Shown in pieces: positions 1,458 through 48,330 of a stretch of 64,000 bases of DNA. The position numbers and the translations under genes are program-made. Position 1 is the first letter of the stretch; each line of letters starts with the position of its first letter. This stretch comes from a virus. Where the stretch lies: the IMG/VR virus record IMGVR_UViG_3300020463_002440, positions 64,001-128,000 of that record; one strand, given 5' to 3'. Below the pieces are notes generated by a model. That model did not search any database and was not told the origin of the DNA. It saw nothing but the letters and a program-made list of their open reading frames with translations.

Positions 1458-1471
1458 AATATTCTTCCTTC

Positions 1472-3018: not shown

Positions 3019-3021
3019 GCT

Positions 3022-23450: not shown

Positions 23451-23498
23451 TCGGTTCACTCTCCCCAGATAGGCGATTTAAATTATATTGTACTGTTT

Positions 23499-23506
23499 TA
23501 TTTATC
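23499..23506 (-). promoter_or_regulatory. Putative late promoter GATAAATA upstream of the giant fibre
   Basis: Variant box overlapping the upstream stop codon; downstream flank similar to the 7340 promoter. Confidence 0.6.
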
Positions 23507-26936: not shown

Positions 26937-26975
26937 ATATATGTCCTTCTATATCATATACCTATTTAGGCAAAT

Positions 26976-31049: not shown

Positions 31050-31384
31050 GAAACCTCCGTAATAGTATCAACTACGATTGCTAAGCCTTCAACTATTTTG
31101 GTGAGTTCTCCTGTTTGTTTTTCCATCACTACGTCGTATTGGTATTTACCAGGAGCTAAAAGATCTGTCTGCTGGTCAGTTAATACTAACGTAATATCGT
31201 TATTTGCGACTTCGATTGTAAAGTTAGTAGCTGCAGTACTTGAATATACTTTTCTTATGCTACTATAGAAATTATAAACAGAGATAGTTGCGTCATCATA
31301 TTCGACACCCTCATCATTAAACAGATTTAGCTCTGTTCTGAAGTCCAATCCTTTATCAATGTATATGTTAGCTCTTGATGCCAT
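31046..31384 (-). CDS. Small conserved T4-like virion protein (Ig/BppU-like)
   Basis: ANIYIDKGLDF...IRK.YSS...ITLVLTDQQT..L.PGKYQYDVV...KIVEG...V pattern common in T4-like fibre regions. Confidence 0.65.
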   Translation of the reverse strand: MASRANIYIDKGLDFRTELNLFNDEGVEYDDATISVYNFYSSIRKVYSSTAATNFTIEVANNDITLVLTDQQTDLLAPGKYQYDVVMEKQTGELTKIVEGLAIVVDTITEVS

Positions 31385-31423
31385 GGCGATGAAACCTTTT
31401 TAAATTTTTATATATTATTACCT

Positions 31424-31431
31424 TATTTATA
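31424..31431 (-). promoter_or_regulatory. T4-type late promoter TATAAATA
   Basis: Exact consensus downstream of a terminator and upstream of 31384. Confidence 0.8.
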
Positions 31432-31450
31432 AGATATGACGACTCAAATG

Positions 31451-31477
31451 AAAAAGGACATTGATTTAATGCCCTTT
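31451..31477 (-). terminator. Rho-independent terminator after the collagen-like fibre gene
   Basis: Minus strand AAAGGGCATT-AAATC-AATGTCC-TTTTT: stem with one G-U pair followed by a U-tract. Confidence 0.7.
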
Positions 31478-31525
31478 CATAGATAGTTATATGAACAGAG
31501 CAATTATACTCGACTCATAATATAA

Positions 31526-34500: not shown

Positions 34501-36535
34501 GATCGGATCCGCCAATTGTATTATTAACAAAATTCCATATCCAAGTTAAACCACCGTATTGACCTTGCTCGCCTTGTAATCCTTGAATGCCTTGTATGCC
34601 AGTTGTTCCTTGAACACCTTGAGTACCCTGACCACCTTCTCTTCCTTGTAGTCCCTGTAGACCTTGTAATCCTTGGATTCCTGTAATACCTTGTATACCT
34701 TGCGACCCTTGTATTGCCTCGCCTTGAATCCCTTGTAGACCCTGTAAACCTTGAATACCTGTCGTTCCTTGAACTCCTTGTAAACCTTGAACACCTTGTG
34801 GACCAAAGTTACCTTGTAATCCTTGGACACCTTGTAGACCTTGAATACCACGATCACCATTTCTTGAGAATGTTAAACGAATGTCTATACCGTTTGCGAA
34901 AGTACCTGCACCACTTATTTTCTCAACAGCATACTCCCAATAACCAGTCTTATCTGTTATTGTATCAATCTTAAATAATGCTTGATCGTAAATATCTACT
35001 GCATTAATAATTCTTACATAACCTTTAGGAGAACCAACAATTGAGTTAAGTTCAGCAGATAAGCCATCCATAACATTGTTAGCACTTTGATCTTCATCAT
35101 CAATCCATAGCTTAAGGTTAGAAGCTGTTAAATCAGTATCACTGAAACGAATCTTTCCTGTACCAGGATCTGCATCAGTTGTGTTATTGTCGTAATCGTA
35201 ATCGTATGTTATTCCACCGAAGTCTCCGGTAGAACCTTGTAATCCTTGTAAGCCTTGAAGTCCTTGTGTACCCTGAACTCCTTGAACACCTTGTAAGCCT
35301 TGAGTACCTTGTGTTCCTGTATCACCTTGTATGCCAGTTGTTCCTTGGACGCCTTGAGTACCTTGAGGTCCAAGTAGTCCTTGAGTACCTTGAACTCCCT
35401 GAACACCTTGCGATCCTGTTATACCTTGAACACCTTGAGCACCACTTCTTACAAATGAAAGTATGAATGCAGGATCTGCAGCAACGTTTGTTAATACTGC
35501 TCCTGTACTTCCTATATGATTAACAAGTATTGTGAACCAACCAGAGTTATCTGTTATTTGTGTAATTTCATATGTAATGAATTGTGATGTATCACTGATT
35601 CTTGTTGCTTGTATATAACCTTTAACAGGACCTGATACTTGGTCAATAGAATTTAGTAATGCTGATACATCTTTAGATTGTTTTGCTGTTGAGTCAATGA
35701 ATAGTGCTGAAGCAGAGTTAGCCGCGGCTGAATTAATTGCGAACTTACCAACTGTAGGATCTTGAGCAACTGTTGTGAGATCAAAGTCAAACTCAAATGA
35801 TACTCCACCATAAGAACCTACAAAACCTTGAATTCCATAAAATCCTTGTATACCAGTGATTCCTTGAACACCCTGTGGTCCTGCACGTCCTTGTGTTCCT
35901 TGGAAACCAAGATCACCTTGAATACCGGTAATACCTTGAACACCTTGTGGACCACGTCTTCCTTGTATACCTTGAATACCGTATATTCCTTGCACACCCT
36001 GAACGCCTTGAATACCACGGAATCCTTGAACTCCACGATATCCTTGTTCACCTTGAATACCTTCTTGACCTAATGTTCCTTGATTACCTTGTAATCCTTG
36101 AATTCCTTGAAATCCTTGTACACCACGGAAAGATCCAATATTTACCCAATTGGCTCCATCCCAAATCCATAGTTCATCATCAGCTTCATCAATAACACCT
36201 TCACCAATATTAGGCGAGGTAAATGCTGCGTTTAAAGTTGCTTGTGGATCTCCACCTGCATCAACATCTGCAACTGAACCAATAATTGTAAAGCCAGGTC
36301 CGTAATTACCTTGGACACCTTGATTACCTTGAATGCCTGAGAAACCTTGTGTTCCTTGAGGTCCTGTTCCAAGTGGCTCCCAGGAAGTACCGTCGGAATA
36401 TCTTAACTCTCCGTTATCGGCATAAACCACTGCACCTTCAAAAGGAGCAGGATCGAGAGTGATAGGAAAAGTTTGCGGAACACCGTGTCCGATTAATTGG
36501 TTCTTTCCTGTCAATGTTCCGAATTTACTGGCCAT
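31526..36535 (-). CDS. Collagen-like fibre protein (Gly-X-Gln) with four globular repeats and C-terminal peptidase S74 chaperone
   Basis: Long GIQGLQGVQG tracts; four (F/Y)GG(I/V/L).......DP..G domains; TTSDESLKDNVETIENALDKVMKLRGV...GVIAQEVE.VMPEVV...VSYGNLVGILIEAIKE. Confidence 0.9.
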   Translation of the reverse strand: MASKFGTLTGKNQLIGHGVPQTFPITLDPAPFEGAVVYADNGELRYSDGTSWEPLGTGPQGTQGFSGIQGNQGVQGNYGPGFTIIGSVADVDAGGDPQATLNAAFTSPNIGEGVIDEADDELWIWDGANWVNIGSFRGVQGFQGIQGLQGNQGTLGQEGIQGEQGYRGVQGFRGIQGVQGVQGIYGIQGIQGRRGPQGVQGITGIQGDLGFQGTQGRAGPQGVQGITGIQGFYGIQGFVGSYGGVSFEFDFDLTTVAQDPTVGKFAINSAAANSASALFIDSTAKQSKDVSALLNSIDQVSGPVKGYIQATRISDTSQFITYEITQITDNSGWFTILVNHIGSTGAVLTNVAADPAFILSFVRSGAQGVQGITGSQGVQGVQGTQGLLGPQGTQGVQGTTGIQGDTGTQGTQGLQGVQGVQGTQGLQGLQGLQGSTGDFGGITYDYDYDNNTTDADPGTGKIRFSDTDLTASNLKLWIDDEDQSANNVMDGLSAELNSIVGSPKGYVRIINAVDIYDQALFKIDTITDKTGYWEYAVEKISGAGTFANGIDIRLTFSRNGDRGIQGLQGVQGLQGNFGPQGVQGLQGVQGTTGIQGLQGLQGIQGEAIQGSQGIQGITGIQGLQGLQGLQGREGGQGTQGVQGTTGIQGIQGLQGEQGQYGGLTWIWNFVNNTIGGSDPGTNNFKFNNSNPALATLITLDDIPADQFTQEIDDFLDFIDNQPGTVKGYLKVQEGNYDDGNGPAGHHWLVYEITDWTWDSGSKNYGYFDVNYVDGNVTNWQTAVNAVHGPAALITFIPRGPAGIQGSTGSQGTQGLQGLTGAGIQGPQGLQGNSGLQGAEGSFGGITFDYTFDVSTINNDPGIGKLKFNNATYSSATALYIDDRDDNFINIEPFLRTVDDSSSPIKGHFKVTKKSQPEVFQIFTISSLAEPTGYFILTCAFVSGNGTFADQEDVTITFARTGDIGAVGNQGTQGLQGLQGTQGLLGLQGTTGAGAQGSTGPQGLQGPQGLQGLQGTTGSVGIQGAQGNAGIQGGLGIQGDSGAGAQGIQGIQGVTGSQGIGGTGSDGFQGTQGIQGPEGGPGAQGLQGADGGDGQPGGAGSQGTQGTTGAGSQGIQGIQGTTGVGAAGSQGIQGVQGPGAVGTQGTTGSGIQGVQGPQGTSGVTGSGVQGLQGIQGLQGESGPQGIDGAGIQGPSGPQGIQGETGAGDLGPQGVQGSNGPQGIQGLIGLQGVIGGASAQGFQGMQGNQGLQGQDGTGAPGIQGPGGIQGVQGPPGELGGLGTQGIQGIQGDLGIQGENGSGLQGIQGGVGPQGVQGNEGGSGGAGTQGPIGNQGIQGITGIQGFEGSGSSGIQGPPGAQGPTGEDATGTQGPSGPIGPQGIQGVQGTLGFQGAFGAGAQGTQGEAGNPGAQGSAGFQGTLGPAGPQGVSGITGSGLQGIQGLIGFQGNDGQTGAQGTTGATGSPDTASIHTSSLQGTAMFITMTQGGSGSRPLYGTTTPNPGGDQNFFYTANDDELTLENLTIDGSVTLGGSTITTWPSGGGGSGNLNNIVEDTTPQLGGNLDGQSYNITTTGDITASDFNTTSDESLKDNVETIENALDKVMKLRGVMFNWIDNGEASTGVIAQEVEQVMPEVVSERDDGTKTVSYGNLVGILIEAIKEQQKEIDELKK
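32150..36370 (-). repeat. 9-bp-periodic collagen coding repeats (ccttg on the plus strand)
   Basis: Recurrent ccttga/ccttgt corresponding to CAA-GGN (Gln-Gly) codons. Confidence 0.9.
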
Positions 36536-36586: not shown

Positions 36587-37012
36587 TTAAACAACATCGT
36601 CTTCTTCAGACTGACCTTGTGTAAACGATATTGTCGCATGAATAGCCAAATCGGCCGTTGCCTCGATTTTTAACTCATCTCCTGTTTTCAAAAACTGACC
36701 GTTCAATGGAATCGGTATCGTCTCATATGCTGGAATTGGCATGTTCTTAAGTATAAAGAATTCTGCGTTTTCTATATGCCTATGAATTTGTAAATCAATA
36801 TTAACAGTATTAGCTGTAACATTGCACAATACAAGAGGTGAGATAATTTCAGCAACACCTGGCTCAACGACGTTTGATCCACCAAAGACAAGCTCAGGTA
36901 CATTATAGTTTGGACAATCCACAATCACACTCATATTGGTTGTAACAACCTTACTGACGGCAATTGGTTTAGCGTCAGGTGCTTGTGAGGTATCTATAGT
37001 AGTTATTGACAT
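36587..37012 (-). CDS. Conserved hypothetical virion protein
   Basis: 141-aa beta-rich ORF (L.NVT.N...I...IP..ET......L.TGD.L) tightly linked to the giant gene. Confidence 0.6.
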   Translation of the reverse strand: MSITTIDTSQAPDAKPIAVSKVVTTNMSVIVDCPNYNVPELVFGGSNVVEPGVAEIISPLVLCNVTANTVNIDLQIHRHIENAEFFILKNMPIPAYETIPIPLNGQFLKTGDELKIEATADLAIHATISFTQGQSEEDDVV

Positions 37013-37027
37013 TTTTAATTTCCTATT

Positions 37028-40000
37028 TTAAATTACTGCTCTACTGTTTGAAGCTCTTCTTGCGAGTTTTCTTACAGAAGATGTAAATGGTCGACCTTCG
37101 ATTCTACCTGTTCGACCGTTAATTCTTAGTCCTCTTGCGAAGTACTGGTTATTCAATTCATCAGCACCTGACCATCGGATTCTACCACCGTCCTCATTAA
37201 GAACCGAAGCAACTGCTGATATAGCAGCACCTAAGTTTCTAAAGTTCAGAGGTAATGCATTTCTGTTAACACCTGCTGATGCACCGTTAAACTGGTGAGC
37301 AATAGATTCAACCAATGATCCAAATACTAATGTATCAGGTTTAAGTACATTACTCTTCAGACAATTATCAAATAATGCTTGTATCATTGCTGTATGATCT
37401 GAATCAGGAGATAGATTATTTACAAGATAATCTCTCATTCGATCCCACGATCCAGTAAATGCATCTAACAAGTCTGTATTGTTAGCACCTTCTAATACCC
37501 AAGTTGAACCATTCCAATAATATATATTACCTGCATACAGATTTGTTGTGAAATCAGTAGCAACAATATATGCCCAGTTTGGTTTCTGTCCTGTAATAGA
37601 ACTTAACGCAGCCACATCAACAACTGATCCTTTATATTTCAATCCTTGCATTGTTGGATTGAATACTGGGAACACATGAGTACCATCGTAATCAAAGAAT
37701 GTTGCTGTAAATGTTCTTATTGCGTTCTGATTACCATTTGTTTGATAGCTTGGTCCTACTGCTTGTGTATCTACATATTTGAAATCATTCTGTAAAGCAG
37801 TTAGTAAGTTTCTTGCATCACGTCTTGTTAGATTAATATCAAGGAAGTTATATGTAGCATTTACATATCTTACAGTATCTTTCTGTAATCCTTTTCTTCT
37901 TTGAGCAAGTATATCTTGAGCATCTGTAAATACTGCATCGCTGTAACTGTAATCAGGTTCAGTTTTAACAGGTAAGTACTTAGTATCATTATTTATTTGA
38001 GTTAAGAAGAATATATCTGCAAGATCTTTAACCTTCTTGCTTTCAACTGCAGTTCCTAATTCACCAAGTATCTTCTGACCTTCGTATTCACCAATTACAA
38101 TATCTTTACAAATCTTACCTAATTGACGATATGCTTTTGCAGTTGGTTCTCGTTGATCTTCAGGTAATCTGTAAACTTGATTCCAGAAGTAGAAATCAGC
38201 ATTCCATCTTGACGCGGTATTACCACCGAAGTTCAAGTCAAAGCTGAATGCATCAAGTAAGAAACCTGTATCTCTTCTACATTTATCTTTGTTGTAATCA
38301 AGTACAGTGAATTGATTGTTTATAAATTCAGTTACATCGGAAGCAAGTTCTTCAGTATTATCAACAAGTTTCTGAGCAGCATTACTAAGTTCAGTTGTTG
38401 GGAAACTTGAAGTTGATACTGGTCTTGGCAATTCGTCATTATCATTAGATCTTATTGATTGTTCGATAATACCAACTAAGTTAGTAACCTCAGTACCTTC
38501 AGTTGAAGTAGCTGCTACACCCAATGTATTTTGCGGAGTTAAAGTATATGTACTTGCATTAGTTACTGGAGTTTCTTGAACTACTTGAGACATTGCATTA
38601 CCAAGCAACTGTAATATATCAGCGTATTGTCTTTGCTGATCTACTTTAAGTACTGATACTTCTTTCTCAAAGTAAATGCCTGCTGATTGTAATGATGCGA
38701 AGTTTGTTTCATATTGAACATCGTGTGATATAGCATCAATAGTATATCCTATATCTCTTCTACATCTTGCTCGAGGGAAACTCAATCCGTTATGATTAAC
38801 TGATATATAACTGATAACACCTTCTGCGGCAGTATGAGATAGTCTTTCAACAAGCTCTTTAGCAGTTACATAGTTATCTCCCATCCAAGTTTGATCCACA
38901 TCAATTCTTTCAGGAATTGTAGATCTTACTTCATAAGAATCATCAACCGCATTGGCAATAAGTTCAACTAGCTTTCTTGTAGCAATACAAGTATTTGGAT
39001 TTGCACCGTGTATCGAGAAGTCTTGAGCTTCTGTTGTTTGATACGAAGGTACGCCGTTCCAATATTCGTATTTAGTTACAATATCACCAGTATAATATTT
39101 TCCTGTTCTTGGGAATAGTTTTGTTTCAATATCCTTAGCACCAACAACATGTTCTATAACTTTTGCCATGTGTAAGAATGCATCTCTTGTTCCCATGTAT
39201 TGTTCGATCTGTAATCCAGTATTTACTGTATTTTCAAAATACATTCCTGCAGTTTGAACTGAAGCCGCATTACCTCCATATTGAATGTCATGAGAAACTG
39301 CATCAATAATATATCCAGCATCTCTTCGACATTTCTCTTCACTGAATGGAAGTATATCATAATTTTCTGCAAGATAAGCAAGCAAGTCTTTAGCAACCGT
39401 TTCTTTAACTCCAAGTACTTCATTAAACGCTGTTTGATTAACTGCAGCATAATTTGATACTTTAGGCAATTCATAAGCAGGATTCAAGAGTAAGGTTGCA
39501 CTTGTAAGAGCATTTGCACAAAGATCAAATAAACCTTCCATTTCGGCGCCGAGTGGAGCACCACCTGAACCTGAACTGAAGTCTTGACTTAACGCATTAT
39601 TTGCTGATTTTAAACCAGCAATATCAGTATCTTGGACAATTAAATCAACACAATCTCCAATATGTTTAAATAGCATAGCTGAAGGCTCAACTTGATTTGT
39701 AGGTAAGCCAACATTAACTCCCTTTTCAAAATAAAGTCGAGTAAAGTTTTGAGTAGCAAAGTTACCTTGATGTTGTCCGTCAAATGAAACTGCATCAATC
39801 AAGTATCCTGTATCTCTTTCGCATTTAGCAACATCGTGAACATGGCTTGGATAATTTGCCTCAACCCATGCTGTTGCTTCAGCTATTAAGAATGCTTTGT
39901 TATTTTGTAATTGAGATCTACCATTTATTCGAGCAACACCTTGAGCATTTGTAGTAAAGTTGATTGCATCAGCAGCACTTCTACCATTTGTCATAACATC

Positions 40001-43000
40001 AATTATTTCGTCAAATGCTTCTTCAACTTTAACCTTTAGTGCTGAATCAGTAACTGCTTTAACTGCCAAGCCTCTTGCAAATTTAATACCTTCAACTGTT
40101 TCAGTTAATTGTTCGTTAATTACTCTGTTTGTACTTACAGTGTCAATTCTGTAAGCAGTACCATTAAATACTGCATTATAGTTAGAACCGGTGAGTACAT
40201 CAACCGCAACTGCATCAAGAAGTAAACCTATGTCTCTCTTACATCTATCTCCATCAAATGTATAATAACGATCTTTCAGATAACCTTGTACTTCTTCAAT
40301 AATAAAGTCTCTGTTTTGTTGTAATTGCTTTCTTGCTAATGTTCTATTCGGATCAAACGAAGCCTTAGTTAATGTTGGGAATTCATCATCTTCGATATTT
40401 ACATCATCAACTAATTGAGCAATTGATTCAATTAAATCATGCAATCTTGTAGCTGTTGCTGTATCAGCTGCAGTTCCATCTGTATTTTGATAAGGACCTG
40501 TACTAATTGCACCAGTATCGGCTGAAACAAATGAATGTGCATATTGACCTGAACCACCAGTACCAACATTCATTGTTATAGATGTACTAGTAATTGATGT
40601 AATCTTAACTGCTTTTCTATAATGAGGATGATGTGCTTGTGGCTCGGTATGATTTTGTGGACCGCTACCCATATCACAACTGAATGTAAATCCATTTGGT
40701 TTTAGATAAACTTTGTTTCCTACATCAAGTGTATGACTTCCAATTGTTGCTGTAAATACTCCAGTTGCTGGATCGTAAGTGGCATCAGTTGGATTGAATG
40801 TTGTAAAGTTTGTAGTATGAGCAACTTCTTTCGCAATCTTTTCAGCAACATCTGCTAAGTGAGAGAATGCCTTTTTCGTTGGTTCTCGTTGTTCATAAGG
40901 TAATACATTAATTGATTCTCTTAATCCTGAAACATTAGCAGTATCTTCATAATCGGATAATACTTTAAACTGTCCTTTTACTTCAATAGGTAATACATTA
41001 GTTGATCTTAATTGTTCGTAATCAGCCGATGCAGAATTGAATCTTCTGAAGTAGTAATCAAATACTTCTAATGTATTTTCATTTCCACCGTATTCAATAT
41101 CTCTTGATACTGCATCAACAATTAAACCAACATCTCTTTCACAAACCTCGGCAGCATAAGGTAATCCTTTATGTTCTTTTCTTAGGTAATCAATTACTGA
41201 CAATGAAATATTTTCGGATATTCCATCAATTGCAGCACAAGCAGTTACCATTGCAGTTTCAACATTAGGTTCGATGTAATCAGGCAAATGATCTATTGTA
41301 TCATCAGAGAGTGCTTGAGTTACAATATTAACTCTATCTCTTGCTAAGTTAGCAACCTCAATACCTCTATCAGTTCCTGTAACATCTTGTGTTACTGCAT
41401 TTCCTGTGGAAGGTGTGATTGTTATATCTCTAACAATACTCCAAGCAACTTCAGCTATATGTTCCCAAACTTTAACAAATGGTTCTTTTTGAGATATAGG
41501 TAATACTGATTCTCCGTTTTCAAAATACAATCTTGCAAAGTTAACAGAACATGTATTTCCGCCAAACCTAACATCTTGTGCTAGTGAATCAACCAAGTAA
41601 CCTGTATCTCTTGCACAATCAGCAGTATCATAAGAGTGGCTAGTATTCTGAGAAAGCCAAGCATTAGTTTCAGCAATAATAAATGCTCTATTAGCAATTA
41701 ATTGATTAGAAGCTTGTTTATGATCTTCTGTTAAAGCAGCTTCATCACCGTATGTTGTCACACCAGTATTGGCTGCACCATTTGATATGATATTAATAAT
41801 TCTATCAAAGTGTTGATTTGCTCTTGTAAGTGCGGTTCCTGTAACATTAGGATCACCGGCAACTTCAGATTTTAAGTAATTAATTGCACCTACTGTTTGT
41901 GTTAACTGATCGTTAATAACTTTGTTAGCACCTACTGAACCAGTTCTATAACCTAGTCCCATGAATTGAGAATTCCAAGTAGAGCCTGTAGCAATATCTC
42001 TTCTTACTGAATCAAGAATGAATCCTGAATCTCTTGTACATTTTTCACCGTTGAATACAAAGTATTCAGAATCTAAATAATTATTAACTTCTTTTTGTAA
42101 GAACTCTCTGTTAGCTTGTATTTGTTCTCTTGCATATTGACCTTGAGAATTATAAGTAACTTTAGCTACTGAATCTTTAATGGCCGATACAAATGTATGA
42201 GTTCCACCTGAACTTGCAAGAAGCTGAACAGTAACATCATTACCATTAACGGCTGTGACAGCTGTTGGAGTATTATAAACTGCATCACCTTTTCTTGGAT
42301 ACGAATGTTCAGTTGCATTACCGTCTTGTGTACATGTATAAGTAAATGAATATGGAGCAAACTGAACATAGTCATTTGTTGTTAAATCATGACCAGGAAT
42401 TGTCATTACAGTAATTCCTGAGGTAGGATCGTAAGTAGATGTTGTTGGTGTATAATGTTTAACAACTGAAGCAGGATCTGTAAATAATAATGCATCTGCA
42501 TCTATACAGTTAACCTCTGCACTAACAAACGTATGAGCTCCACCAGGACCTGCTCCTACATTCATTGTAATTGTATCAGAAGTTGCTGAATCAATTCTTA
42601 TAGGCTTCTTATAAGTAATACTATGATGTTCTTGAGGAACTGCATGATTGTAAACATTTCCATCCATTGTACATGTAAATACAAACGACCTAGGCTTAAT
42701 TGTTATATAATCGCCTGCTTCTAAATTATGTTGTCCAATTGTGGCAGTCATTACACCGGTTGCTTCATTGTAAGTAGCAGTTCTTGGTGTATACGTAGAT
42801 ATGTAATTACGTGTCTTAATATTATTTGCTGTTGCTGATATAAATGTATGAGGAGATGTATCAGACGAAGTACCTGCATTAATTGTAATCGTTGTGTTTG
42901 ATGTAGCAGCTACTACCATTGGCTTCTTATAAGCAGGATGTTCTCTTGTTCCTTGAATGGCACCTGTAATAGCAGATACAAATGTATGAGTACCTGATGC

Positions 43001-46000
43001 GTAATTTCCTCTTACCTTACCAACATTACATCCAATTACATTACCTTCAACTGAAGTAAGGGTAACTTCTTTTCTAAAGTTAGGATGGTGTTCTTCAGGT
43101 TCAGGATGACTTGTTTGATTATTATCTAACAGGCAAGACCATGTAATACCTCTTGTGGCAAATTTAATCTTATCGCCTACTCTTAATTTGTTAGTTCCAA
43201 TATCAGCAGTAAACTCTCCAGTAGCAGGATCATAAGTAGCTGTACTTGGAGTAAAGTTTGTTACTGTCTTTGTTGGATACGAATGCTGAGATGCATTACC
43301 ATCCAAATCACAAGTATATGTTAAGCTCTCAGGAGCAATTAATATTTCTTGTCCGATTTGTAAATCGTGAGAACCAATTGTAAGTACGTTTAGACCTGTA
43401 ATAGGATCGTAAGCAGAATCTGAAGTTGAATAAGTTTTACCTGTACTATTTAAAATACTTGTAATTTTATCGAATGCTTCGTCTGATCTGAACCCAGAAG
43501 CTTTATCATCAATTGCCTTAACATGTGAGATTGCATTGTTTGAAGCAGATACAAATGTATGAGGATTAGATCCACCGTACCCAACAAACATTGTGATAGT
43601 TGTTGGTGTTGTAGATTCAATTGGACAAGGATGATTAAAGAAAGGATGTCCTGGATTTGGAACTGCATCGTTTGTAGGTCCACTTCCTGTATCACAACTG
43701 AATGTAATACCATCTTCAGCAAACCTTACATAATCTCCTGCTTGTAATTTGTGACGACCGATAGTAGCAGTAAATATTCCAGACTCAGGATTATATGATG
43801 CATCAGTTGGAGTAAATGACAATCCTTGATTCTTTGCAGGAGTAATTGCGTTTGCGACTGCAGATACAAATGTATGTTCTTGCTGTCCTGTTGATCCACC
43901 ATAACCAGGATTCAATGTAATAGTTGTATTTGATACTCCTATGATTGGACAAGGAACGCCGTTTGCATATGGGTGATGCGCTTCAGGAACCGCATGGTTT
44001 GTAGGACCTGAACCAGTATCACAACTGAATGTAATACCTTGCATCGCAAATACAACAGTATCTCCAACAGCCAATGTATGAGCACCAATAGTTGCTACCA
44101 TGATTCCGGTAGAAGGATCGTAAGTTACGTCAGTAGGCTGGAATCCGCTTTCTGTCTGAAGTGTATTAACTCTTCTCTTAAGTTCGTTTATTGCACCTGT
44201 TGTTTGTACTAACTGATCGTTAATTACATTATCAGCTAACTCCGTACCTGCACGATAAGCAAGACCTGTTTGATATGCATTATAATTTGAACCTGTTAGA
44301 AGATCTCTTTCAACTGCAGGTAAAATGTATTCTCTAACATCTCTTCTACATTTGGCAGAATCATATCTGAAATATGTTTCATCAAGATATCCATCAACGT
44401 AATCCATTAAGAATGTTCTGTTTCTTTGTAATTGCTTTCTTGCGTTTCTCTTATTAGCAGGAATGCTTGCACTATCAGACCATTTGATAGTATCGCCTAG
44501 TACTGTAACTGCGCCTTGTGCAGCTTCGATGAATTGATACTCAAACGCAAATGGTTGTGTACCAACGTCAACTGTAATTTTATGAGGTACTGCACCTAAT
44601 ACTTCGACTGGAGTTTCATCAGCAGGATAACCTGCTTTTGGATAATAGGCTCTTGTTGTATGATTATCTCTGCTACAAGTCATGGTGAAACCACCTCTCT
44701 TAAGCAATACATAATCACCTATACTTAATCCGTGACCTGACTGAATAGCATTTGGAGTAGCAGAAACAAATGTATGTACTTGTTGACCAGTATCTCCACC
44801 ATAACCAACATTCATTCTTATTTTATTTCTACTTACACCGATAATTGGACATGGCTTTTCGTAATAAGGGTGGTGAGGTTCAGGAACCGCATGATTTGTA
44901 GGACCTGATCCAGTATCACAAGACCAAGTAACACTCTCAGGATTAAACCAAACAAAATCTCCTACTTCTAATTCGTGAGCACCTATATTGGCCTCCATAA
45001 TTCCAGTGGCAGGATCATAAGTTCCATCAGTCATTTGGTGAGCTTTTGAATTACCCATTGTGATAACGAATAAACCAGTTACTGGATCATAAGTTGCACC
45101 AGTAGGTGTATATTGTTTTCCTTTATTCTCAAGGATTTGTAAAATGTTATCGTAAGCATCATCAAGTCGTTGTGAAGCAAGATAAGAATCACCATCTATT
45201 AATTCATTAGTTTGATCCTTTAATCTATTATAAGCAGCAACTGTTTCGTTATTTTGATTTTGTATAACTGCTTTTGCAGATTGCATATAATATGCTCGAC
45301 CTGCAGTAAGTGAATTATAGTTAGTTTCAAATAACATGTCATTCTTAACGGCAGGAATAATATAATCAGAAACATCTCGACGACAAGATTTACTATCGTA
45401 TGCAAAGAACTCATCGTTGTTTTCAATCCAATCAATTAGCTCTTCAGTAACAAACTCTCTATTGTCCTGTAGTAGTGTTCTAGCTGCTGTTCGAGGCACA
45501 GAAGTATCTTGCCATATAATCGGGTTGATGTTCTCTTCACCGTATTCTAAGACATTTAGAAGTTCAGCAAAGGATGTATCAATTCTTGGATTAATTTCAT
45601 TATTTGCTGAAACAAAGATTTCTTTTGACCTGTCTCTTAAGTATTCGTTTGCACCTTTTGTTTCTTCAAGCTGTTCACCAGGAACAACATAACTGATTGG
45701 AGACCTATAAGTAATACCAGCAAGTCTTCCCCAATAGTTTGTATCAAGTGCAACGTCATAACCTGTACCGTCAATTATAATACCTGAATCTCTTAAACAT
45801 TTTTCTGAATCGTATTCTTTATAACCTAATCCACCGTTTGCTGAATTTGCTGTTAGGTAATCAACTACATCATCAATAACATCGTCAGCCGCATTATCAA
45901 TTGTATCAGCGAAGACTGTATTACCAATAATAAGATTAGAGTTTATACCTCTTGGAGCAAAGAATTCAGTTGTACCTTTTGCTCTCATTGATATATCACC

Positions 46001-48295
46001 GAACTGTGTACCTGAGTTGTTCAGCGTCATTTGACCACCGTTCAGTGCATAGAATGCACAACGAACAAATATTGATAATGAACCAATACCGTTAACACCA
46101 GCACCGTCTCTAGCAACATATCCTAAACCGTTTTGTGTACGAGGTGTGAAACCAAAACATAATACATATGTATATAATGAATCAGTATCAAGTACTCTTC
46201 TATCTGCAAGTACACAACCACCACCACGACCAACTTCTCTATTTGGGAAATCGTCCATGCCGATTGATTGTATAACACCTGTACCACCTGACTCACAAGT
46301 TACTGTATCTCCTACAGCAAATCCTTCGCCATTCTTCAGATTACGAACTCTGATAATACGATTTACTTCGATATCTTTATCGTTACCTTTTGTTACATCG
46401 TCAGTATCTTCCCACGATAGGAATCCTACAGCACCTGATGAGAATACAACTTCATCATCTTTTTGCCATAACTGTCTTGCTCCACCGTTACCTGGGTAAT
46501 TACCTAATGATCCATTTCCGCTATCAAATGTATGGCCCGGTGCCAATGTAAATGTTTGACCAAGGTCAGCAAGAGTACCTTTTGAGTTATAAGGATTAAG
46601 AGGTGGTTCAACATCTTGTCTTAAGAAGTTTGATAACTGAGTACTATCTCTAAGATATGGAGATCTTAATAGTTTAGCACCTGGTCGATATGCAATCGCA
46701 AATCCACCTTCTGGGAAATCAAAGTTATCAACTTTAAAGTTTTGATAACCGAAACCTTGAACATAACAACCAGAACCAACTAGGATTCCGTTATTGTTCT
46801 CGAATCCAGGAAGTAATTCAATTACTGTAGCATACTGACCTGCGGTTGAAGTACAGGAACAATCATCAGGTAACTGCAGATTACCTTTTGTATAATAAGT
46901 TCCTGGTCCAACCGAAATATGAACAGCATTATTAATTGCGTTACGATTTAATTCGCCACCTGCTTTTTCTAAACAAAGTTCAAATGCTCTCTCAAGAGTT
47001 TTAACAGGAGCTAACATTGTGCCAGGATTTTTATCATCACCTGATCCTGCATCAGCATGTACTTTTAATGCTTGAGCTGTTTTCTTAGATACTTCTTCGA
47101 ATAATTGACCGAAGTTAATTTGTTCTGTATCACCTGTCTTTTCGTTACGGATTGCGAAATATGAATCATCATCTATAGGAGCTTCAAACTCTTTAGTAAG
47201 ATCCATATCAAAGTCGGCAAGTCTTGATCTATCAATTGTACCGCCACTAAATACTGATCCTGAAAGTGCACCATTATCAAACGTTGAATTATTTGCTCCA
47301 AGACCATCGGCAGATGAACTACGGATTGTCATATCGGTTGCTACGACATTCTGCATTGTACCTTGGAAGTCAGTATTAGAAATTGTTCCATCGGTGAATA
47401 CTGAATCATCAATAGTTGAATTTGTTAATGTTACATTGTTTCCTGTACCATCGTTAAACTGAGAATTTGTTATGATAGTGTTATTTGAAGTACTATCATT
47501 AAGTTGTGAACTTGTAAGAACAACATTATTACCTGTGGAATCTGTTATAACTCCATCATCAAATATTGAACTTGTAAGTGTAACATTATTACCTGTGCCA
47601 TCATTAAACACTGATTGTGTAATTGTTACATTGTTTGCTGTTGAGTCATTAAGAACAGAATTAGCAAGTCTTATGTTATCACCATCAACATCTGACATTG
47701 TGCCAGTTGTAAACGACGAACTTGTTATTGTAATATTATTTGCTACAGAATCAGTAATTGTAGAATCATCAATTGTAGAATTAGTTAATACTACATTATT
47801 ACCTGTGCCATCATCAAACGACGAATTAGTAATCGCAACATTGTTTGCTGTGCTATCGTTAAGTTCAGAATTTGTTAGAACAACATTATTACCTGTACCA
47901 TCATTAAACACCGATTGTGTAATTGTTACATTGTTGGCAGTTGAGTCAAATATTCCACCGTTCGTAAACGTAGACGATGTCATTGTAATATTGTTAGCGG
48001 TAGAATCTGTTATGACTGTATCGTCAACAGTTCCACGAACAAAATTAGTATCTTCTATATCCGAATTATCAATTTTAACGTTATCAAGTCTAGAATCTGA
48101 CATGACAACACCGGAGATTGTACCTCCTGTAATAGTTATTCTTGAAAAGACCTCATACTGAATTGCTTCAACTAATTCTTTTCGAGTAATATTACTTGTG
48201 CCGTCATCACCTTGAACAAGGTTAACGATGACAAATAGGTCTTCTGACCTGGTATTGGCACCGGTAATCGGAGGTAATTCTGAAATTTTTGCCAT
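37028..48295 (-). CDS. Giant (3755 aa) virion protein: N-terminal beta-helix region, 11-12 phycobiliprotein-like CxRD helical repeats, nine Cys/His beta-domain repeats
   Basis: MAKISELPPI N-terminus; 15-aa NNVxLTxSxxxDxTx repeats; GDDKNPGTMLAPVKTLERA pectin-lyase-like entry motif; KCxRDxGYxxDAxxxD...GGN repeats; TYDPxTG...HTFVSA repeats; late promoter upstream. Confidence 0.8.
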   Translation of the reverse strand: MAKISELPPITGANTRSEDLFVIVNLVQGDDGTSNITRKELVEAIQYEVFSRITITGGTISGVVMSDSRLDNVKIDNSDIEDTNFVRGTVDDTVITDSTANNITMTSSTFTNGGIFDSTANNVTITQSVFNDGTGNNVVLTNSELNDSTANNVAITNSSFDDGTGNNVVLTNSTIDDSTITDSVANNITITSSSFTTGTMSDVDGDNIRLANSVLNDSTANNVTITQSVFNDGTGNNVTLTSSIFDDGVITDSTGNNVVLTSSQLNDSTSNNTIITNSQFNDGTGNNVTLTNSTIDDSVFTDGTISNTDFQGTMQNVVATDMTIRSSSADGLGANNSTFDNGALSGSVFSGGTIDRSRLADFDMDLTKEFEAPIDDDSYFAIRNEKTGDTEQINFGQLFEEVSKKTAQALKVHADAGSGDDKNPGTMLAPVKTLERAFELCLEKAGGELNRNAINNAVHISVGPGTYYTKGNLQLPDDCSCTSTAGQYATVIELLPGFENNNGILVGSGCYVQGFGYQNFKVDNFDFPEGGFAIAYRPGAKLLRSPYLRDSTQLSNFLRQDVEPPLNPYNSKGTLADLGQTFTLAPGHTFDSGNGSLGNYPGNGGARQLWQKDDEVVFSSGAVGFLSWEDTDDVTKGNDKDIEVNRIIRVRNLKNGEGFAVGDTVTCESGGTGVIQSIGMDDFPNREVGRGGGCVLADRRVLDTDSLYTYVLCFGFTPRTQNGLGYVARDGAGVNGIGSLSIFVRCAFYALNGGQMTLNNSGTQFGDISMRAKGTTEFFAPRGINSNLIIGNTVFADTIDNAADDVIDDVVDYLTANSANGGLGYKEYDSEKCLRDSGIIIDGTGYDVALDTNYWGRLAGITYRSPISYVVPGEQLEETKGANEYLRDRSKEIFVSANNEINPRIDTSFAELLNVLEYGEENINPIIWQDTSVPRTAARTLLQDNREFVTEELIDWIENNDEFFAYDSKSCRRDVSDYIIPAVKNDMLFETNYNSLTAGRAYYMQSAKAVIQNQNNETVAAYNRLKDQTNELIDGDSYLASQRLDDAYDNILQILENKGKQYTPTGATYDPVTGLFVITMGNSKAHQMTDGTYDPATGIMEANIGAHELEVGDFVWFNPESVTWSCDTGSGPTNHAVPEPHHPYYEKPCPIIGVSRNKIRMNVGYGGDTGQQVHTFVSATPNAIQSGHGLSIGDYVLLKRGGFTMTCSRDNHTTRAYYPKAGYPADETPVEVLGAVPHKITVDVGTQPFAFEYQFIEAAQGAVTVLGDTIKWSDSASIPANKRNARKQLQRNRTFLMDYVDGYLDETYFRYDSAKCRRDVREYILPAVERDLLTGSNYNAYQTGLAYRAGTELADNVINDQLVQTTGAINELKRRVNTLQTESGFQPTDVTYDPSTGIMVATIGAHTLAVGDTVVFAMQGITFSCDTGSGPTNHAVPEAHHPYANGVPCPIIGVSNTTITLNPGYGGSTGQQEHTFVSAVANAITPAKNQGLSFTPTDASYNPESGIFTATIGRHKLQAGDYVRFAEDGITFSCDTGSGPTNDAVPNPGHPFFNHPCPIESTTPTTITMFVGYGGSNPHTFVSASNNAISHVKAIDDKASGFRSDEAFDKITSILNSTGKTYSTSDSAYDPITGLNVLTIGSHDLQIGQEILIAPESLTYTCDLDGNASQHSYPTKTVTNFTPSTATYDPATGEFTADIGTNKLRVGDKIKFATRGITWSCLLDNNQTSHPEPEEHHPNFRKEVTLTSVEGNVIGCNVGKVRGNYASGTHTFVSAITGAIQGTREHPAYKKPMVVAATSNTTITINAGTSSDTSPHTFISATANNIKTRNYISTYTPRTATYNEATGVMTATIGQHNLEAGDYITIKPRSFVFTCTMDGNVYNHAVPQEHHSITYKKPIRIDSATSDTITMNVGAGPGGAHTFVSAEVNCIDADALLFTDPASVVKHYTPTTSTYDPTSGITVMTIPGHDLTTNDYVQFAPYSFTYTCTQDGNATEHSYPRKGDAVYNTPTAVTAVNGNDVTVQLLASSGGTHTFVSAIKDSVAKVTYNSQGQYAREQIQANREFLQKEVNNYLDSEYFVFNGEKCTRDSGFILDSVRRDIATGSTWNSQFMGLGYRTGSVGANKVINDQLTQTVGAINYLKSEVAGDPNVTGTALTRANQHFDRIINIISNGAANTGVTTYGDEAALTEDHKQASNQLIANRAFIIAETNAWLSQNTSHSYDTADCARDTGYLVDSLAQDVRFGGNTCSVNFARLYFENGESVLPISQKEPFVKVWEHIAEVAWSIVRDITITPSTGNAVTQDVTGTDRGIEVANLARDRVNIVTQALSDDTIDHLPDYIEPNVETAMVTACAAIDGISENISLSVIDYLRKEHKGLPYAAEVCERDVGLIVDAVSRDIEYGGNENTLEVFDYYFRRFNSASADYEQLRSTNVLPIEVKGQFKVLSDYEDTANVSGLRESINVLPYEQREPTKKAFSHLADVAEKIAKEVAHTTNFTTFNPTDATYDPATGVFTATIGSHTLDVGNKVYLKPNGFTFSCDMGSGPQNHTEPQAHHPHYRKAVKITSITSTSITMNVGTGGSGQYAHSFVSADTGAISTGPYQNTDGTAADTATATRLHDLIESIAQLVDDVNIEDDEFPTLTKASFDPNRTLARKQLQQNRDFIIEEVQGYLKDRYYTFDGDRCKRDIGLLLDAVAVDVLTGSNYNAVFNGTAYRIDTVSTNRVINEQLTETVEGIKFARGLAVKAVTDSALKVKVEEAFDEIIDVMTNGRSAADAINFTTNAQGVARINGRSQLQNNKAFLIAEATAWVEANYPSHVHDVAKCERDTGYLIDAVSFDGQHQGNFATQNFTRLYFEKGVNVGLPTNQVEPSAMLFKHIGDCVDLIVQDTDIAGLKSANNALSQDFSSGSGGAPLGAEMEGLFDLCANALTSATLLLNPAYELPKVSNYAAVNQTAFNEVLGVKETVAKDLLAYLAENYDILPFSEEKCRRDAGYIIDAVSHDIQYGGNAASVQTAGMYFENTVNTGLQIEQYMGTRDAFLHMAKVIEHVVGAKDIETKLFPRTGKYYTGDIVTKYEYWNGVPSYQTTEAQDFSIHGANPNTCIATRKLVELIANAVDDSYEVRSTIPERIDVDQTWMGDNYVTAKELVERLSHTAAEGVISYISVNHNGLSFPRARCRRDIGYTIDAISHDVQYETNFASLQSAGIYFEKEVSVLKVDQQRQYADILQLLGNAMSQVVQETPVTNASTYTLTPQNTLGVAATSTEGTEVTNLVGIIEQSIRSNDNDELPRPVSTSSFPTTELSNAAQKLVDNTEELASDVTEFINNQFTVLDYNKDKCRRDTGFLLDAFSFDLNFGGNTASRWNADFYFWNQVYRLPEDQREPTAKAYRQLGKICKDIVIGEYEGQKILGELGTAVESKKVKDLADIFFLTQINNDTKYLPVKTEPDYSYSDAVFTDAQDILAQRRKGLQKDTVRYVNATYNFLDINLTRRDARNLLTALQNDFKYVDTQAVGPSYQTNGNQNAIRTFTATFFDYDGTHVFPVFNPTMQGLKYKGSVVDVAALSSITGQKPNWAYIVATDFTTNLYAGNIYYWNGSTWVLEGANNTDLLDAFTGSWDRMRDYLVNNLSPDSDHTAMIQALFDNCLKSNVLKPDTLVFGSLVESIAHQFNGASAGVNRNALPLNFRNLGAAISAVASVLNEDGGRIRWSGADELNNQYFARGLRINGRTGRIEGRPFTSSVRKLARRASNSRAVI
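47250..48130 (-). repeat. 15-aa (45-bp) beta-helix/pentapeptide-like coding repeats
   Basis: DSTANNVTITQSVFNDGTGNNVVLTNSELNDSTANNVAITNSSFDDGTGNNVVLTNS... Confidence 0.85.
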
Positions 48296-48322
48296 TTAGC
48301 TATTTCCCTTTGGTATTACTTA

Positions 48323-48330
48323 TATTTATA
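48323..48330 (-). promoter_or_regulatory. T4-type late promoter TATAAATA
   Basis: Exact consensus 27 nt upstream of the 3755-aa gene. Confidence 0.82.

Follow-up and report, generated by a model that had tools for sequence, protein, structure and literature searches.

This locus raises the question of why a tail-fiber-type phage protein should carry, in many copies, a helical domain with the cysteine motif at which phycobiliproteins bind their bilin pigments. The window, that is, the whole stretch of 64,000 nucleotides that was analyzed, comes from a 156-kb record that is 73% complete. The product of the open reading frame P0001 matches tail fiber and virion structural protein families (PHROG), and its gene is flanked by T4-like baseplate and fiber genes. 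The gene neighborhood and the PHROG names suggest that P0001 is located in the virion. A late promoter for this gene had been proposed in an earlier note made from the DNA alone, and a late-promoter-like motif, TATAAATA, was seen upstream of the start codon. P0001 is best explained as a late-expressed structural protein of the tail-fiber type from an uncultured T4-like marine myovirus.

The best explanation for the architecture of P0001 is a chain of modules in which a pentapeptide beta-helix at the N-terminus is followed by twelve globin domains of six helices each, with approximately nine beta-rich Cys/His repeats interposed (Table 1). The pentapeptide family PF13599 was matched in four stretches at 51.8 bits, above the cut-off, with the best at aa 104-179. 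The second beta-rich region consists of approximately six copies of ..TFSCDTGSGPxNHAVPExHHP..CP..HTFVSA, and the first has HTFVSA at its end. No Pfam family was matched by the first beta-rich region or by the C-terminal region.

Table 1. Features of the P0001 gene and its product, in window coordinates
Feature	Residues (aa)	Motif	First base of motif codon	Position	Strand	Basis
T4-type late-promoter-like motif TATAAATA, 27 nt upstream of ATG (putative)				48323-48330	minus	sequence read
AAGGGA, likely ribosome-binding site				48305-48310	minus	sequence read
P0001, giant tail-fiber-type structural protein	3755 in total			37028-48295	minus	ORF list, translation
Pentapeptide-repeat region, N-terminal	~57-345			47261-48127	minus	Pfam PF13599; outer limits from translation
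Domain 1	791-933	CLRD at 833	45799	45497-45925	minus	HMM envelope, 116 bits; motif
Domain 2	934-1074	CRRD at 971	45385	45074-45496	minus	HMM, 143 bits
Beta-rich Cys/His repeat region 1	1075-1279			44459-45073	minus	motif scan, translation
Domain 3	1280-1421	CRRD at 1316	44350	44033-44458	minus	HMM, 116 bits
Beta-rich Cys/His repeat region 2	1422-2049			42149-44032	minus	motif scan; PHROG 1276/18802 stretches
Domain 4	2050-2186	CTRD at 2086	42040	41738-42148	minus	HMM, 131 bits
Domain 5 (modelled copy)	2190-2340	CARD at 2227	41617	41276-41728	minus	HMM, 144 bits
Domain 6, long insert	2347-2528	CERD at 2385	41143	40712-41257	minus	HMM, 113 bits; alignment
Beta-rich Cys/His repeat region 3, one copy	2529-2648			40352-40711	minus	motif scan
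Domain 7	2649-2784	CKRD at 2685	40243	39944-40351	minus	HMM, 138 bits
Domain 8	2787-2941	CERD at 2825	39823	39473-39937	minus	HMM, 140 bits
Domain 9	2951-3108	CRRD at 2989	39331	38972-39445	minus	HMM, 137 bits
Domain 10	3140-3295	CRRD at 3178	38764	38411-38878	minus	HMM, 127 bits
Domain 11	3301-3445	CRRD at 3339	38281	37961-38395	minus	HMM, 140 bits
Domain 12, Cys-less	3454-3605	TRRD at 3490	37828	37481-37936	minus	HMM, 91 bits
C-terminal region	3606-3755			37031-37480	minus	no recognized family

The earlier note had described eleven helical repeats of 110-140 aa with C-x-R-D and a Cys-less copy with TRRD. All of these motifs were found within 1-3 nt of the positions it gave, and every peptide it quoted is present in the translation of P0001. 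The repeats are helical, and their HMM envelopes of 136-182 aa are somewhat longer than the length given in the note. The twelve copies share 17-38% mutual identity, and the Arg and Asp of the motif and a second Asp are invariant in their alignment. C-x-R-D occurs 12 times in P0001, compared with 0.12 expected from composition and a maximum of 3 in 5000 shuffles. The one occurrence outside the globin domains (CSRD, residue 1207; the thirteenth motif when TRRD is counted) lies in a different, beta-rich repeat within the first beta-rich region.

The relationship to phycobiliproteins was determined by comparing 150 phage domain copies with 11 cyanobacterial phycobiliproteins using hhalign. The match had a probability of 95% (E 3.6e-8) over 113 columns, with the phage Cys aligned on phycobiliprotein Cys82/84, and the reversed-profile control gave 0.6%. 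Masking of C-x-R-D in both profiles left the register unchanged (P 3e-4). PF00502 was matched by 24 of the 150 copies (best E 3.8e-5), and every other Pfam family was matched by three at most; none of the 12 copies of P0001 reached the PF00502 cut-off (best E 0.18). The AF2 model of domain 5 has a pLDDT of 97.1 and a pTM of 0.90. In an unbiased search with VIA over 48,161 chains, the top 8 matches to the domain model were phycobiliproteins and ApcE (Z 11.8-14.5, rmsd 1.9-2.7 Å), below which came the bilin-binding photocobilin globins (Z 11.4) and hemoglobins (Z 6-7). The best 50 structural matches in a second VIA comparison were all phycobiliproteins, including phycoerythrin beta (2vjh_B; Z 15.7, rmsd 1.9 Å, 128 residues). 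These results bear out the globin-fold, phycobiliprotein-like domains of the earlier note; the flanking-helix resemblances that it had pointed out fall in the same register of the profile alignment, and in comparisons of the kind that it had proposed for excised repeats, the AlphaFold model came out structurally closest to phycobiliproteins. The phage domains are almost certainly genuine, though strongly diverged, homologues of phycobiliprotein subunits, and the alignments place C-x-R-D, at the start of helix E, at the position of the Cys82/84 bilin site.

From helix A through helix H, the phage domain has the globin-type fold of alpha and beta phycobiliprotein subunits, and helices A, B, E, F, G, and H are all retained. 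Also in register are the helix B Asn, the Tyr that precedes the Cys, the Gly that follows helix E, the tyrosine of Glu-x-Tyr, and the C-terminal F-D..I helix. The identity to phycobiliproteins is 10-20%. The domain lacks the X-Y hairpin, through which alpha and beta subunits pair in phycobiliproteins, and an alpha/beta-type heterodimer is therefore not expected. Two residues that are invariant in phycobiliproteins, Arg91 and Tyr95, have been lost, with Asp (+9) in place of Arg91, whereas Asp(+14), Asn(+20), and Thr(+46) are invariant in the phage domain and new relative to phycobiliproteins. Phycobiliproteins are free 17-20 kDa subunits in the phycobilisome, whereas the phage domains form tandem arrays inside fiber proteins. 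ApcE (4xxi, Z 13.2; 7eyd, 7sc7, and 9wg7, Z 11.8-12.3) resembles the phage fiber in having a phycobiliprotein-type domain inside a large multidomain scaffold protein, but it belongs to the phycobilisome and not to a virion. In ApcE, linker repeats come after a single domain of this type, and the bilin is attached at a different Cys without the help of a lyase.

Conservation of the site was determined for 1383 domain copies from 151 proteins. The Cys is present in 95%, the Arg in 96%, the Asp in 99%, and a Tyr at +30 in 98% of these copies. In the 68 Cys-less copies, the Arg is down to 54%, the Asp to 75%, the Tyr to 66%, and the Thr to 50%, whereas D53, G57, and N59 are unchanged. Four residues thus decay with the Cys and three structural positions do not, which resembles the behavior of a working ligand site. 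Judged by these frequencies, C-x-R-D with the downstream Tyr and Thr behaves as one conserved site that is lost as a unit. CXRD is the bilin site in phycobiliproteins and in the self-attaching BBAG-1/3 globins (PMC10151467).

We propose that in each Cys-bearing domain a bilin, a linear tetrapyrrole, would be joined to the Cys by a thioether bond, its propionates and pyrrole nitrogens held by the Arg and Asp in the manner of phycobiliproteins. The bilin could be attached autocatalytically, as in the BBAG globins, or, in phages that have one, with the help of a T-type lyase. Since 11 of the 12 homologous domains have an intact pigment-attachment site, the virus particle may carry bilin pigment, and the fiber would then be a chromoprotein, each chain having 11 sites. 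More speculatively, the pigment might make the fiber light-responsive, for example in the gating of adsorption, and the fiber might take up, as a sink, the bilins that the heme oxygenase and bilin reductase of phages produce. We consider it nearly an even question whether a bilin or other tetrapyrrole is bound in the virion, and the explanation as a whole, bilin binding included, falls slightly short of even.

The best precedent for a self-loading phage domain is provided by the bilin biosynthesis-associated globins (BBAGs) of non-photosynthetic bacteria, of which BBAG-1 and BBAG-3 have retained CXRD and need no lyase for bilin attachment (Rockwell et al. 2023; PMC10151467). The BBAGs are phycobiliprotein paralogues outside light harvesting, in organisms without phycobilisomes, and are found beside HO and FDBR genes. 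The phage domain is likened to them by their published description. The BBAGs are stand-alone cellular proteins in HO/FDBR clusters, whereas the phage domain occurs 12 times in a structural protein that is not clustered with HO/FDBR.

The earlier note saw no bilin synthesis gene in the window, and we agree; the search that it had called for in the rest of the genome found no gene for HO, FDBR, CpeT, or a CpeS/U lyase in the 73%-complete record. The evidence on its further proposal, that a virion acceptor explains the bilin genes of phages, is mixed. In its favor, this genome encodes 5-aminolevulinate synthase (AlaS; 559 bits, above the cut-off), HemC, and a URO-D protein (HemE), and an adjacent HO-FDBR pair is present in all three near-complete psbA-less relatives with Cys-bearing copies (G001, G054, and G082). 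The rare valaS gene is found on 4 of 31 domain-bearing contigs. On the other side, 24 of the 25 large domain-bearing fragments have no HO or FDBR, and G080, a complete relative, carries HO-FDBR together with no more than a single, Cys-less domain copy. The domain is absent from Mosig (a pelagiphage with HO and PcyX), HTVC008M, AG-345-F15/L05, Melnitz-3, and P-SSM2, the last of which is annotated in published work with ho1/pebS/pcyA, and from five of the six other near-complete FDBR phages. The linkage between the bilin genes and the domain is not tight.

The lack of bilin genes on many domain-bearing contigs and in P0001's own genome speaks for a reading in which the phycobiliprotein fold is a rigid helical bead for long fibers, without a chromophore, and C-x-R-D and its partners form a polar network on which folding, or contact from bead to bead or chain to chain, depends. 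In fiber-type proteins the domain is repeated in tandem up to 36 times, with other structural repeats in between; it lacks the X-Y hairpin and several residues that are invariant in phycobiliproteins; the Arg and Asp are still there in Cys-less domain 12; and cofactor-free globin-like folds (RsbR, pXO2-61) are among the structural neighbors. Packing alone, however, is unlikely to keep a lone Cys in 95% of copies at approximately 16-27% identity, an intradomain disulfide is ruled out by the presence of exactly one Cys in 81% of the 1383 copies, the site decays as a unit on Cys loss when the structural positions do not, and the three kept residues are exactly the bilin-binding three of the parent family (PMC10151467). 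We regard a purely structural role as unlikely, although it deserves serious consideration.

Less probable still is that the Cys serves another chemistry: binding of another tetrapyrrole, such as heme or a porphyrin supplied through the phage AlaS, HemC, and HemE, coordination of a metal ion, or covalent cross-linking to another chain or a host receptor. The presence of early heme-pathway genes, with neither heme oxygenase nor bilin reductase in the recovered 73% of the genome, would fit, as would the structurally near heme domains of globin-coupled sensors (Z ~10.8) and the Gln/Glu column at position 81, which is coupled to the Cys (Gln in 60% of Cys-bearing and 21% of Cys-less copies). However, the domain profile has no conserved His as a possible heme ligand, the nearest proteins by sequence and fold are bilin binders and not heme binders, and complete relatives carry HO-FDBR. 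A general Cys-Gln thioester is ruled out by the presence of Gln in only 58% of copies at the Cys-coupled column. Chance resemblance of unrelated helical bundles is close to refuted: middling structural scores are common for such bundles, the Foldseek E-values are only 0.0025-0.1, and the P0001 copies lie below the Pfam cut-off, but four independent lines agree in one register, and the match outlives motif masking, vanishes with the reversed profile, and the 50 best structural matches are phycobiliproteins without exception.

For the proposed chromoprotein fiber, the distribution of the domain is also of interest. It was found only in phage-like DNA. Among cyanomyoviruses it is present in giant tail-fiber, short-tail-fiber, and gp7-like proteins (PHROGs 5342, 701, and 4527), such as S-PM2 p091 and YP_195253, S-WAM2 gp224, and P-HM2 gp7, with 9 copies in S-PM2, 14 in S-WAM2, and 5 each in P-HM1 and P-HM2; BFVD models of these fiber proteins match at TM 0.8-0.9. 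The database records of the S-PM2, S-WAM2, and P-HM2 proteins name no globin domain, and our literature search found no paper describing phycobiliprotein-like domains in a phage fiber. Against bilin binding, we are aware of no published account of pigmented cyanophage virions. Compared with the cyanomyoviruses, the present genome lacks psbA in its recovered 73% and encodes AlaS, HemC, and HemE; its gp23 is as close to Stenotrophomonas, Sinorhizobium, and Methylophilales phages as to cyanophages.

The adsorption of P-HM1, P-HM2, and S-PM2 occurs in the light only, by a mechanism independent of photosynthesis (PMC6628666). As a new lead in favor of the proposed bilin binding, the domain is present in these three phages and not in the dark-adsorbing P-SSM2; also in its favor, cpeT lies 1.3-3 kb upstream of the giant C-x-R-D fiber gene in S-PM2, S-WAM2, ACG-2014e/h/j, S-CAM3, and S-CAM4; both correlations come from few related phages in approximately three independent lineages, and shared ancestry could explain both. 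The beta-rich repeat is likewise common to cyanomyovirus fiber proteins, and many of the tblastn matches came from the third beta-rich region of P0001 rather than from the globin domain.

The giant tail-fibre-type protein P0001 carries twelve globin repeats, eleven of them with a C-x-R-D motif. The Cys codon positions that the earlier note had listed were matched within 1-3 nt, and all of the peptides that it quoted were found in the P0001 translation. The motif C-x-R-D was observed 12 times in P0001, relative to 0.12 occurrences predicted from composition and at most 3 in 5000 shuffles; one of the 12, the CSRD at residue 1207, sits in another repeat type. When centred on the motif, the repeats can be aligned for about 140 residues; R, D, and a second D occur in every copy, and C, N, Y, and Q in almost every one. 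All 12 domain HMM matches of the genome fall in this ORF, and none in the 3950-aa structural ORF. The coordinates of the features discussed here are collected in the table.

Positions of P0001, its repeats, neighbouring genes, and genes of the heme and bilin pathways
Feature	Position	Strand	Basis or remark
Giant ORF P0001	window 37028-48295	minus	3755 aa; ORF list and translation
C-x-R-D motifs of globin copies	P0001 residues 833, 971, 1316, 2086, 2227, 2385, 2685, 2825, 2989, 3178, 3339	minus	motif scan
T-R-R-D of Cys-less copy	P0001 residue 3490	minus	motif scan
TATAAATA	window 48323-48330		27 nt before P0001 ATG
Second repeat type of P0001	window 40352-40711, 42149-44032, 44459-45073 (aa 1075-1279, 1422-2049, 2529-2648)	minus	about 100 aa, about nine copies
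413-aa ORF, just upstream of P0001	window 48345-49586	minus	C-terminal Peptidase_S74 (endosialidase-type intramolecular chaperone) domain; tail-fibre tip similarity
141-aa ORF, between P0001 and collagen-like fibre gene	window 36587-37012	minus	no family match
1669-aa collagen-like fibre ORF	window 31526-36535	minus	many PHROG tail-fibre matches
3950-aa giant structural ORF	window 11607-23459	minus	without globin domain
5-Aminolevulinate synthase	whole record 14109-15311	plus	TIGR01821, 559.6 bits (cut-off 338.6); outside window
Hydroxymethylbilane synthase HemC	whole record 52937-53779	plus	above cut-off; outside window
URO-D (HemE-like) protein	whole record 43586-44527	minus	outside window
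CHASE2-adenylate/guanylate cyclase; FecR-domain protein	whole record 41548-43593; 45596-46783	minus	adjoining hemE
CsgF and CsgG homologues	G001, locus L136, 164787-166162		directly after the HO-FDBR pair
cpeT and giant C-x-R-D fibre gene	S-PM2 163952-177267 (L224; cpeT 163952-164476); S-WAM2 17190-33280 (L134)	same strand	several Synechococcus phage genera

The earlier note had proposed that the repeats are related to phycobiliproteins, and this proposal is now strongly supported. Because family models, profile-profile comparison by hhalign, the structure predicted with AlphaFold, and structure searches all agree, the globin repeats of P0001 are very probably homologous to phycobiliproteins. 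When the whole of P0001 was scanned against Pfam, the sole family matched was the pentapeptide repeat, and the phycobiliprotein family PF00502 gave no match at E ≤ 1. One of the 12 individual copies matched PF00502 (E 0.18), and the gathering threshold (22.2 bits) was reached neither by the whole protein nor by any of these copies. Scanned singly, 24 of 150 diverse copies of the family matched PF00502 with a best E of 3.8e-5, and every other Pfam family was matched by 3 copies or fewer. The 150-copy alignment (A2) was compared using hhalign with 11 real phycobiliproteins taken from annotated cyanobacterial plasmids. The two align with 95% probability (E 3.6e-8) in 113 columns that reach from helix A/B as far as the C-terminal helix, and the phage C, R, and D were placed on Cys82, Arg84, and Asp85 of the reference alignment, the Cys82/84 site at the start of helix E. 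The reversed phycobiliprotein profile gave 0.6%, and the same register was recovered when C-x-R-D was masked on both sides (P 3e-4). A profile made from the 12 copies of P0001 found just a chance coiled-coil match (E 8) among PDB sequences.

The structure of the domain was modelled with pLDDT 71 from the 12 copies of P0001, and with pLDDT 97.1, pTM 0.90, and six helices from the 150 copies. In Foldseek searches the best 50 matches of the first model were phycobiliproteins or globin sensors, and only phycobiliproteins (TM 0.58-0.65) were listed for the second. The VIA-align search of 48,161 representative chains, which is independent of Foldseek, ranked phycobiliproteins and the ApcE bilin domain as its top 8 (Z 11.8-14.5, rmsd 1.9-2.7 Å), and the best match in this unbiased search was 8or7_A (Z 14.5, rmsd 1.9, 115 aa). 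Lower ranks were taken by bilin-binding photocobilin globins (11.4), globin-coupled sensors (about 10.8), and ordinary haemoglobins (6-7). In a second look with VIA, the top matches were all phycobiliproteins, including phycoerythrin beta 2vjh_B (Z 15.7, rmsd 1.9, 128 residues). The domain is thus predicted by AF2 and VIA to adopt a globin-type fold with helices A, B, E, F, G, and H. The profile and structural alignments both start only at about position 35-37 of phycobiliproteins, so the domain lacks the X-Y hairpin through which alpha and beta subunits pair, and it has no additional N-terminal helices. Judged by fold and motif, the domain belongs to the phycobiliprotein superfamily. It departs from the canonical phycobiliproteins in scoring below the Pfam cut-off, lacking the X-Y hairpin, and lying, to judge from its context, outside any phycobilisome.

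Phycobiliproteins are regarded as the light-harvesting proteins of cyanobacteria, red algae, and cryptophytes, and stand-alone relatives, the bilin biosynthesis-associated globins (BBAGs), were found only recently in heterotrophic bacteria. Here phage fibre proteins contain long arrays of the phycobiliprotein fold in which the pigment-attachment triad is preserved. A BBAG is a stand-alone globin encoded in a cluster with heme oxygenase (HO) and bilin reductase (FDBR) genes, whereas the phage domain forms a tandem array inside a giant protein, and HO and FDBR are absent from the record. The clustering of BBAG genes is also unlike the situation in G001, a near-complete relative in which the HO-FDBR pair lies about 150 kb from the fibre gene. 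BBAG-1/3 combine CXRD with lyase-independent attachment of the bilin, and the phage domain shares this motif as judged from its sequence.

P0001 matches the PHROG tail fiber family 5342 with an E of 5.5e-123. It lies in a late structural module next to genes of the T4-like baseplate wedge, tail-fibre connector, collagen-like fibre, and Peptidase_S74 fibre-chaperone families. A separate, self-cleaving fibre or spike protein is encoded by the 413-aa ORF immediately upstream. The 141-aa ORF on the other side matched no lyase, PHROG, Pfam, or other family, and its location would suit a fibre assembly chaperone. That the domains are strung along a 3755-aa fibre-type protein whose gene sits in a baseplate and fibre module argues against a light-harvesting assembly of (alpha-beta)3 discs or a phycobilisome.

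Within 1383 near-full copies of the domain, Cys is conserved in 95%, Arg in 96%, Asp in 99%, Asp(+14) in 99%, Tyr(+30) in 98%, and Thr(+46) in 90%, where the numbers in brackets are distances from the motif Cys. The mean identity among copies of the family is about 16-27%, and exactly one Cys is present in 81% of them. The 68 copies that have lost the Cys serve as an internal control. From Cys-bearing to Cys-less copies, conservation falls from 98% to 54% for Arg, 100% to 75% for Asp, 99% to 66% for Tyr(+30), 92% to 50% for Thr(+46), and 60% to 21% for Gln(+42), and it is the same for Asp(+14), Gly(+18), and Asn(+20). This joint decay points to a single selected site made up of C, R, D, Y, and T and distinct from the structural core.

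The C, R, and D of C-x-R-D bind the bilin in phycobiliproteins and in the self-attaching globins BBAG-1/3 (PMC10151467). The binding of a bilin or another tetrapyrrole would be the likeliest reason for the conserved site, a tentative assignment to which we give slightly less than an even chance. If the site is loaded, the fibre would be the first pigmented component of a virion. A purely structural role of the domain is rather unlikely. Should the site not be loaded, the domain would still clearly exemplify a light-harvesting fold taken over as a structural module, and its 95%-conserved lone Cys would call for another explanation. That this Cys serves some other chemistry is quite improbable.

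Among 1.8 billion representative proteins, a profile search returned 1386 at E ≤ 0.001, many of which are 2000-6000 aa in length, with up to 36 copies of the domain in a single protein. More than one thousand protein clusters contain the domain, essentially only in phage DNA. The degenerate DNA pattern for C-x-R-D-x-G-x3-D-x4-D-x3-G-G-N was found in more than 120 stretches of IMG/VR and in 25 stretches of prokaryotes (one genome per species, 185,579 species). The latter 25 all come from MAG contigs, spread over scattered taxa, with no isolate genome among them, and the domain is therefore essentially phage-borne. BFVD models with the domain include tail-fibre and structural proteins of S-PM2, S-WAM2, S-CAM1, S-ShM2, Syn30, and others. 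The fold search of the ESM Atlas gave mostly noise, but one viral cluster has an automatic PF00502 assignment on 55% of its members; the feature search of the same atlas gave no usable match. Megablast of the P0001 gene against isolated phages found no match, a near-length search for stand-alone homologues found just fragments on contigs of about 1 kb, and no description of the domain in phage fibres was found in the literature searched. A restriction of the domain to cyanophages is ruled out, as psbA/psbD were found in none of the 25 largest domain-bearing IMG/VR contigs and in none of the genomes G054, G080, G082, and G084. Most of the motif-bearing contigs of 50-120 kb (G001-G025, loci L008-L087) are rated only 15-30% complete, which implies genomes of about 300-350 kb and thus a large clade of psbA-less jumbo phages with such fibres; two complete or near-complete jumbo examples are 322 and 328 kb.

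The earlier note had also suggested that the domain could explain what phage-made bilins are for. With the domain HMM run over whole records, the positive controls gave 12 copies in the genome of P0001, 14 in S-WAM2, and 5 in P-HM1. No copy was found in Mosig, HTVC008M, marine viruses AG-345-F15 and AG-345-L05, Melnitz-3, or P-SSM2. Pelagiphage Mosig encodes HO, PcyX, and ferrochelatase. With Mosig and HTVC008M devoid of copies while the controls worked, the domain is ruled out as the explanation of HO and PcyX in pelagiphages, and it does not explain phage bilin genes in general. Among FDBR-bearing IMG/VR contigs of at least 45 kb, 6 of 28 contain the domain, as does 1 of the 6 that are at least 90% complete, the 322-kb jumbo phage G054. 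Conversely, among the 25 largest domain-bearing contigs, HO and FDBR occur together only in G001 (328 kb, 92% complete), the others being 15-52% fragments. These counts rule out a strict co-occurrence. What stands of the suggestion concerns non-cyanophages: the Cys-bearing copies in complete or near-complete genomes have so far always been accompanied by the bilin pathway. Adjacent HO-FDBR genes were found in all three psbA-less genomes of this kind, a small number uncorrected for relatedness; G001 was found by motif, G082 through gp23, and G054 through FDBR, so that G054 is a biased case. Of 31 domain-bearing contigs, 4 have valaS, the rare phage AlaS gene, and three of these have FDBR too. 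In G001, the HO-FDBR pair is immediately followed by homologues of the curli-secretion proteins CsgF and CsgG.

The source record is 156,383 bp, of which bases 64001-128000 form the window, and is estimated to be 73% complete. It encodes Gp23 and Gp20, and its gp23 is about 65% identical to those of phages of Stenotrophomonas, Sinorhizobium, and Methylophilales and 62-64% identical to those of cyanophages and pelagiphage HTVC008M. The bilin genes that the earlier note would have sought in the rest of the genome are absent from this 73%-complete record (HO, FDBR, CpeT, and CpeS), and no psbA/psbD was found in it. Both complete gp23 relatives, G080 (218 kb) and G082 (283 kb), carry HO-FDBR, and therefore the missing quarter of the genome may carry this pair as well. 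G080 has a single, Cys-less copy of the domain despite its HO-FDBR genes. The presence of 5-aminolevulinate synthase, HemC, and URO-D identifies a valaS-type phage with several heme-pathway genes, which assigns it to the valaS phages described by Wegner et al. 2024 (PMC11480375). According to these authors, the accompanying genes hemO-pcyX serve a purpose that is "still enigmatic" in phages with non-cyanobacterial hosts, and bilin-binding globins are among the possibilities mentioned (PMC11480375). Near the heme-pathway genes the record also encodes serine hydroxymethyltransferase and a Grx-NrdB fusion, and hemE is adjoined by genes for a CHASE2-adenylate/guanylate cyclase and a FecR-domain protein.

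The 3792-aa "short tail fiber" protein of S-PM2 contains C-x-R-D copies. Its gene is preceded at 1.4 kb, on the same strand, by cpeT, which encodes a homologue of T-type bilin lyases. The same arrangement is found in S-WAM2, ACG-2014e/h/j, S-CAM3, and S-CAM4 (cpeT 1.3-3 kb upstream, same strand), and was not seen in P-HM1 or P-HM2. It could be explained by shared synteny among related phages. Liu et al. 2019 reported that adsorption in the dark is absent in P-HM1 and P-HM2 and present in P-SSM2, and suggested light-sensitive receptors or tail fibres; as cited there, Jia et al. 2010 found that adsorption of S-PM2 needs light, not photosynthesis (PMC6628666). P-HM1 and P-HM2 each have 5 copies of the domain, S-PM2 has 9, and P-SSM2 has 0. 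We treat this correlation as a hypothesis, not a result, because at most three independent lineages are involved.

A loaded site would bear on the purpose of phage bilin-synthesis and lyase genes and on the light-only adsorption of some cyanophages that has no need of host photosynthesis (PMC6628666). In a more speculative mechanism, tail fibres with bilins covalently bound to the phycobiliprotein-derived domains would act as the virion's own photoreceptor, and light absorbed by the fibre would gate adsorption. Such a mechanism would account for why S-PM2, P-HM1, and P-HM2 depend on light, but not on photosynthesis, for adsorption, and would provide the phage HO, PcyX/PebS, CpeT, and AlaS genes with a phage-encoded substrate, including in phages of non-photosynthetic hosts. 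Taken as a whole, a bilin-loaded fibre with both of these functions is unlikely. A gene for a 2OG-Fe(II) oxygenase lies between cpeT and the giant fibre gene of S-PM2, and three such genes flank HO-PcyX in pelagiphage Mosig.

A tblastn result of 199 records, all cyanophage, was dropped as a measure of the distribution of the globin domain, as many of the matches (query 443-597) are to the beta-rich second repeat type of P0001; HMM searches of whole records were used for the named phages in its place. This repeat, not the globin domain, is also the source of the match to Marine virus AG-345-F15. It matched no Pfam family. Its consensus is ..Y(D/N)PxTG..TFSCDTGSGPTNHAVPExHHP..CP..HTFVSA, and each copy contains two Cys and three to four His residues in what resembles a metal site.
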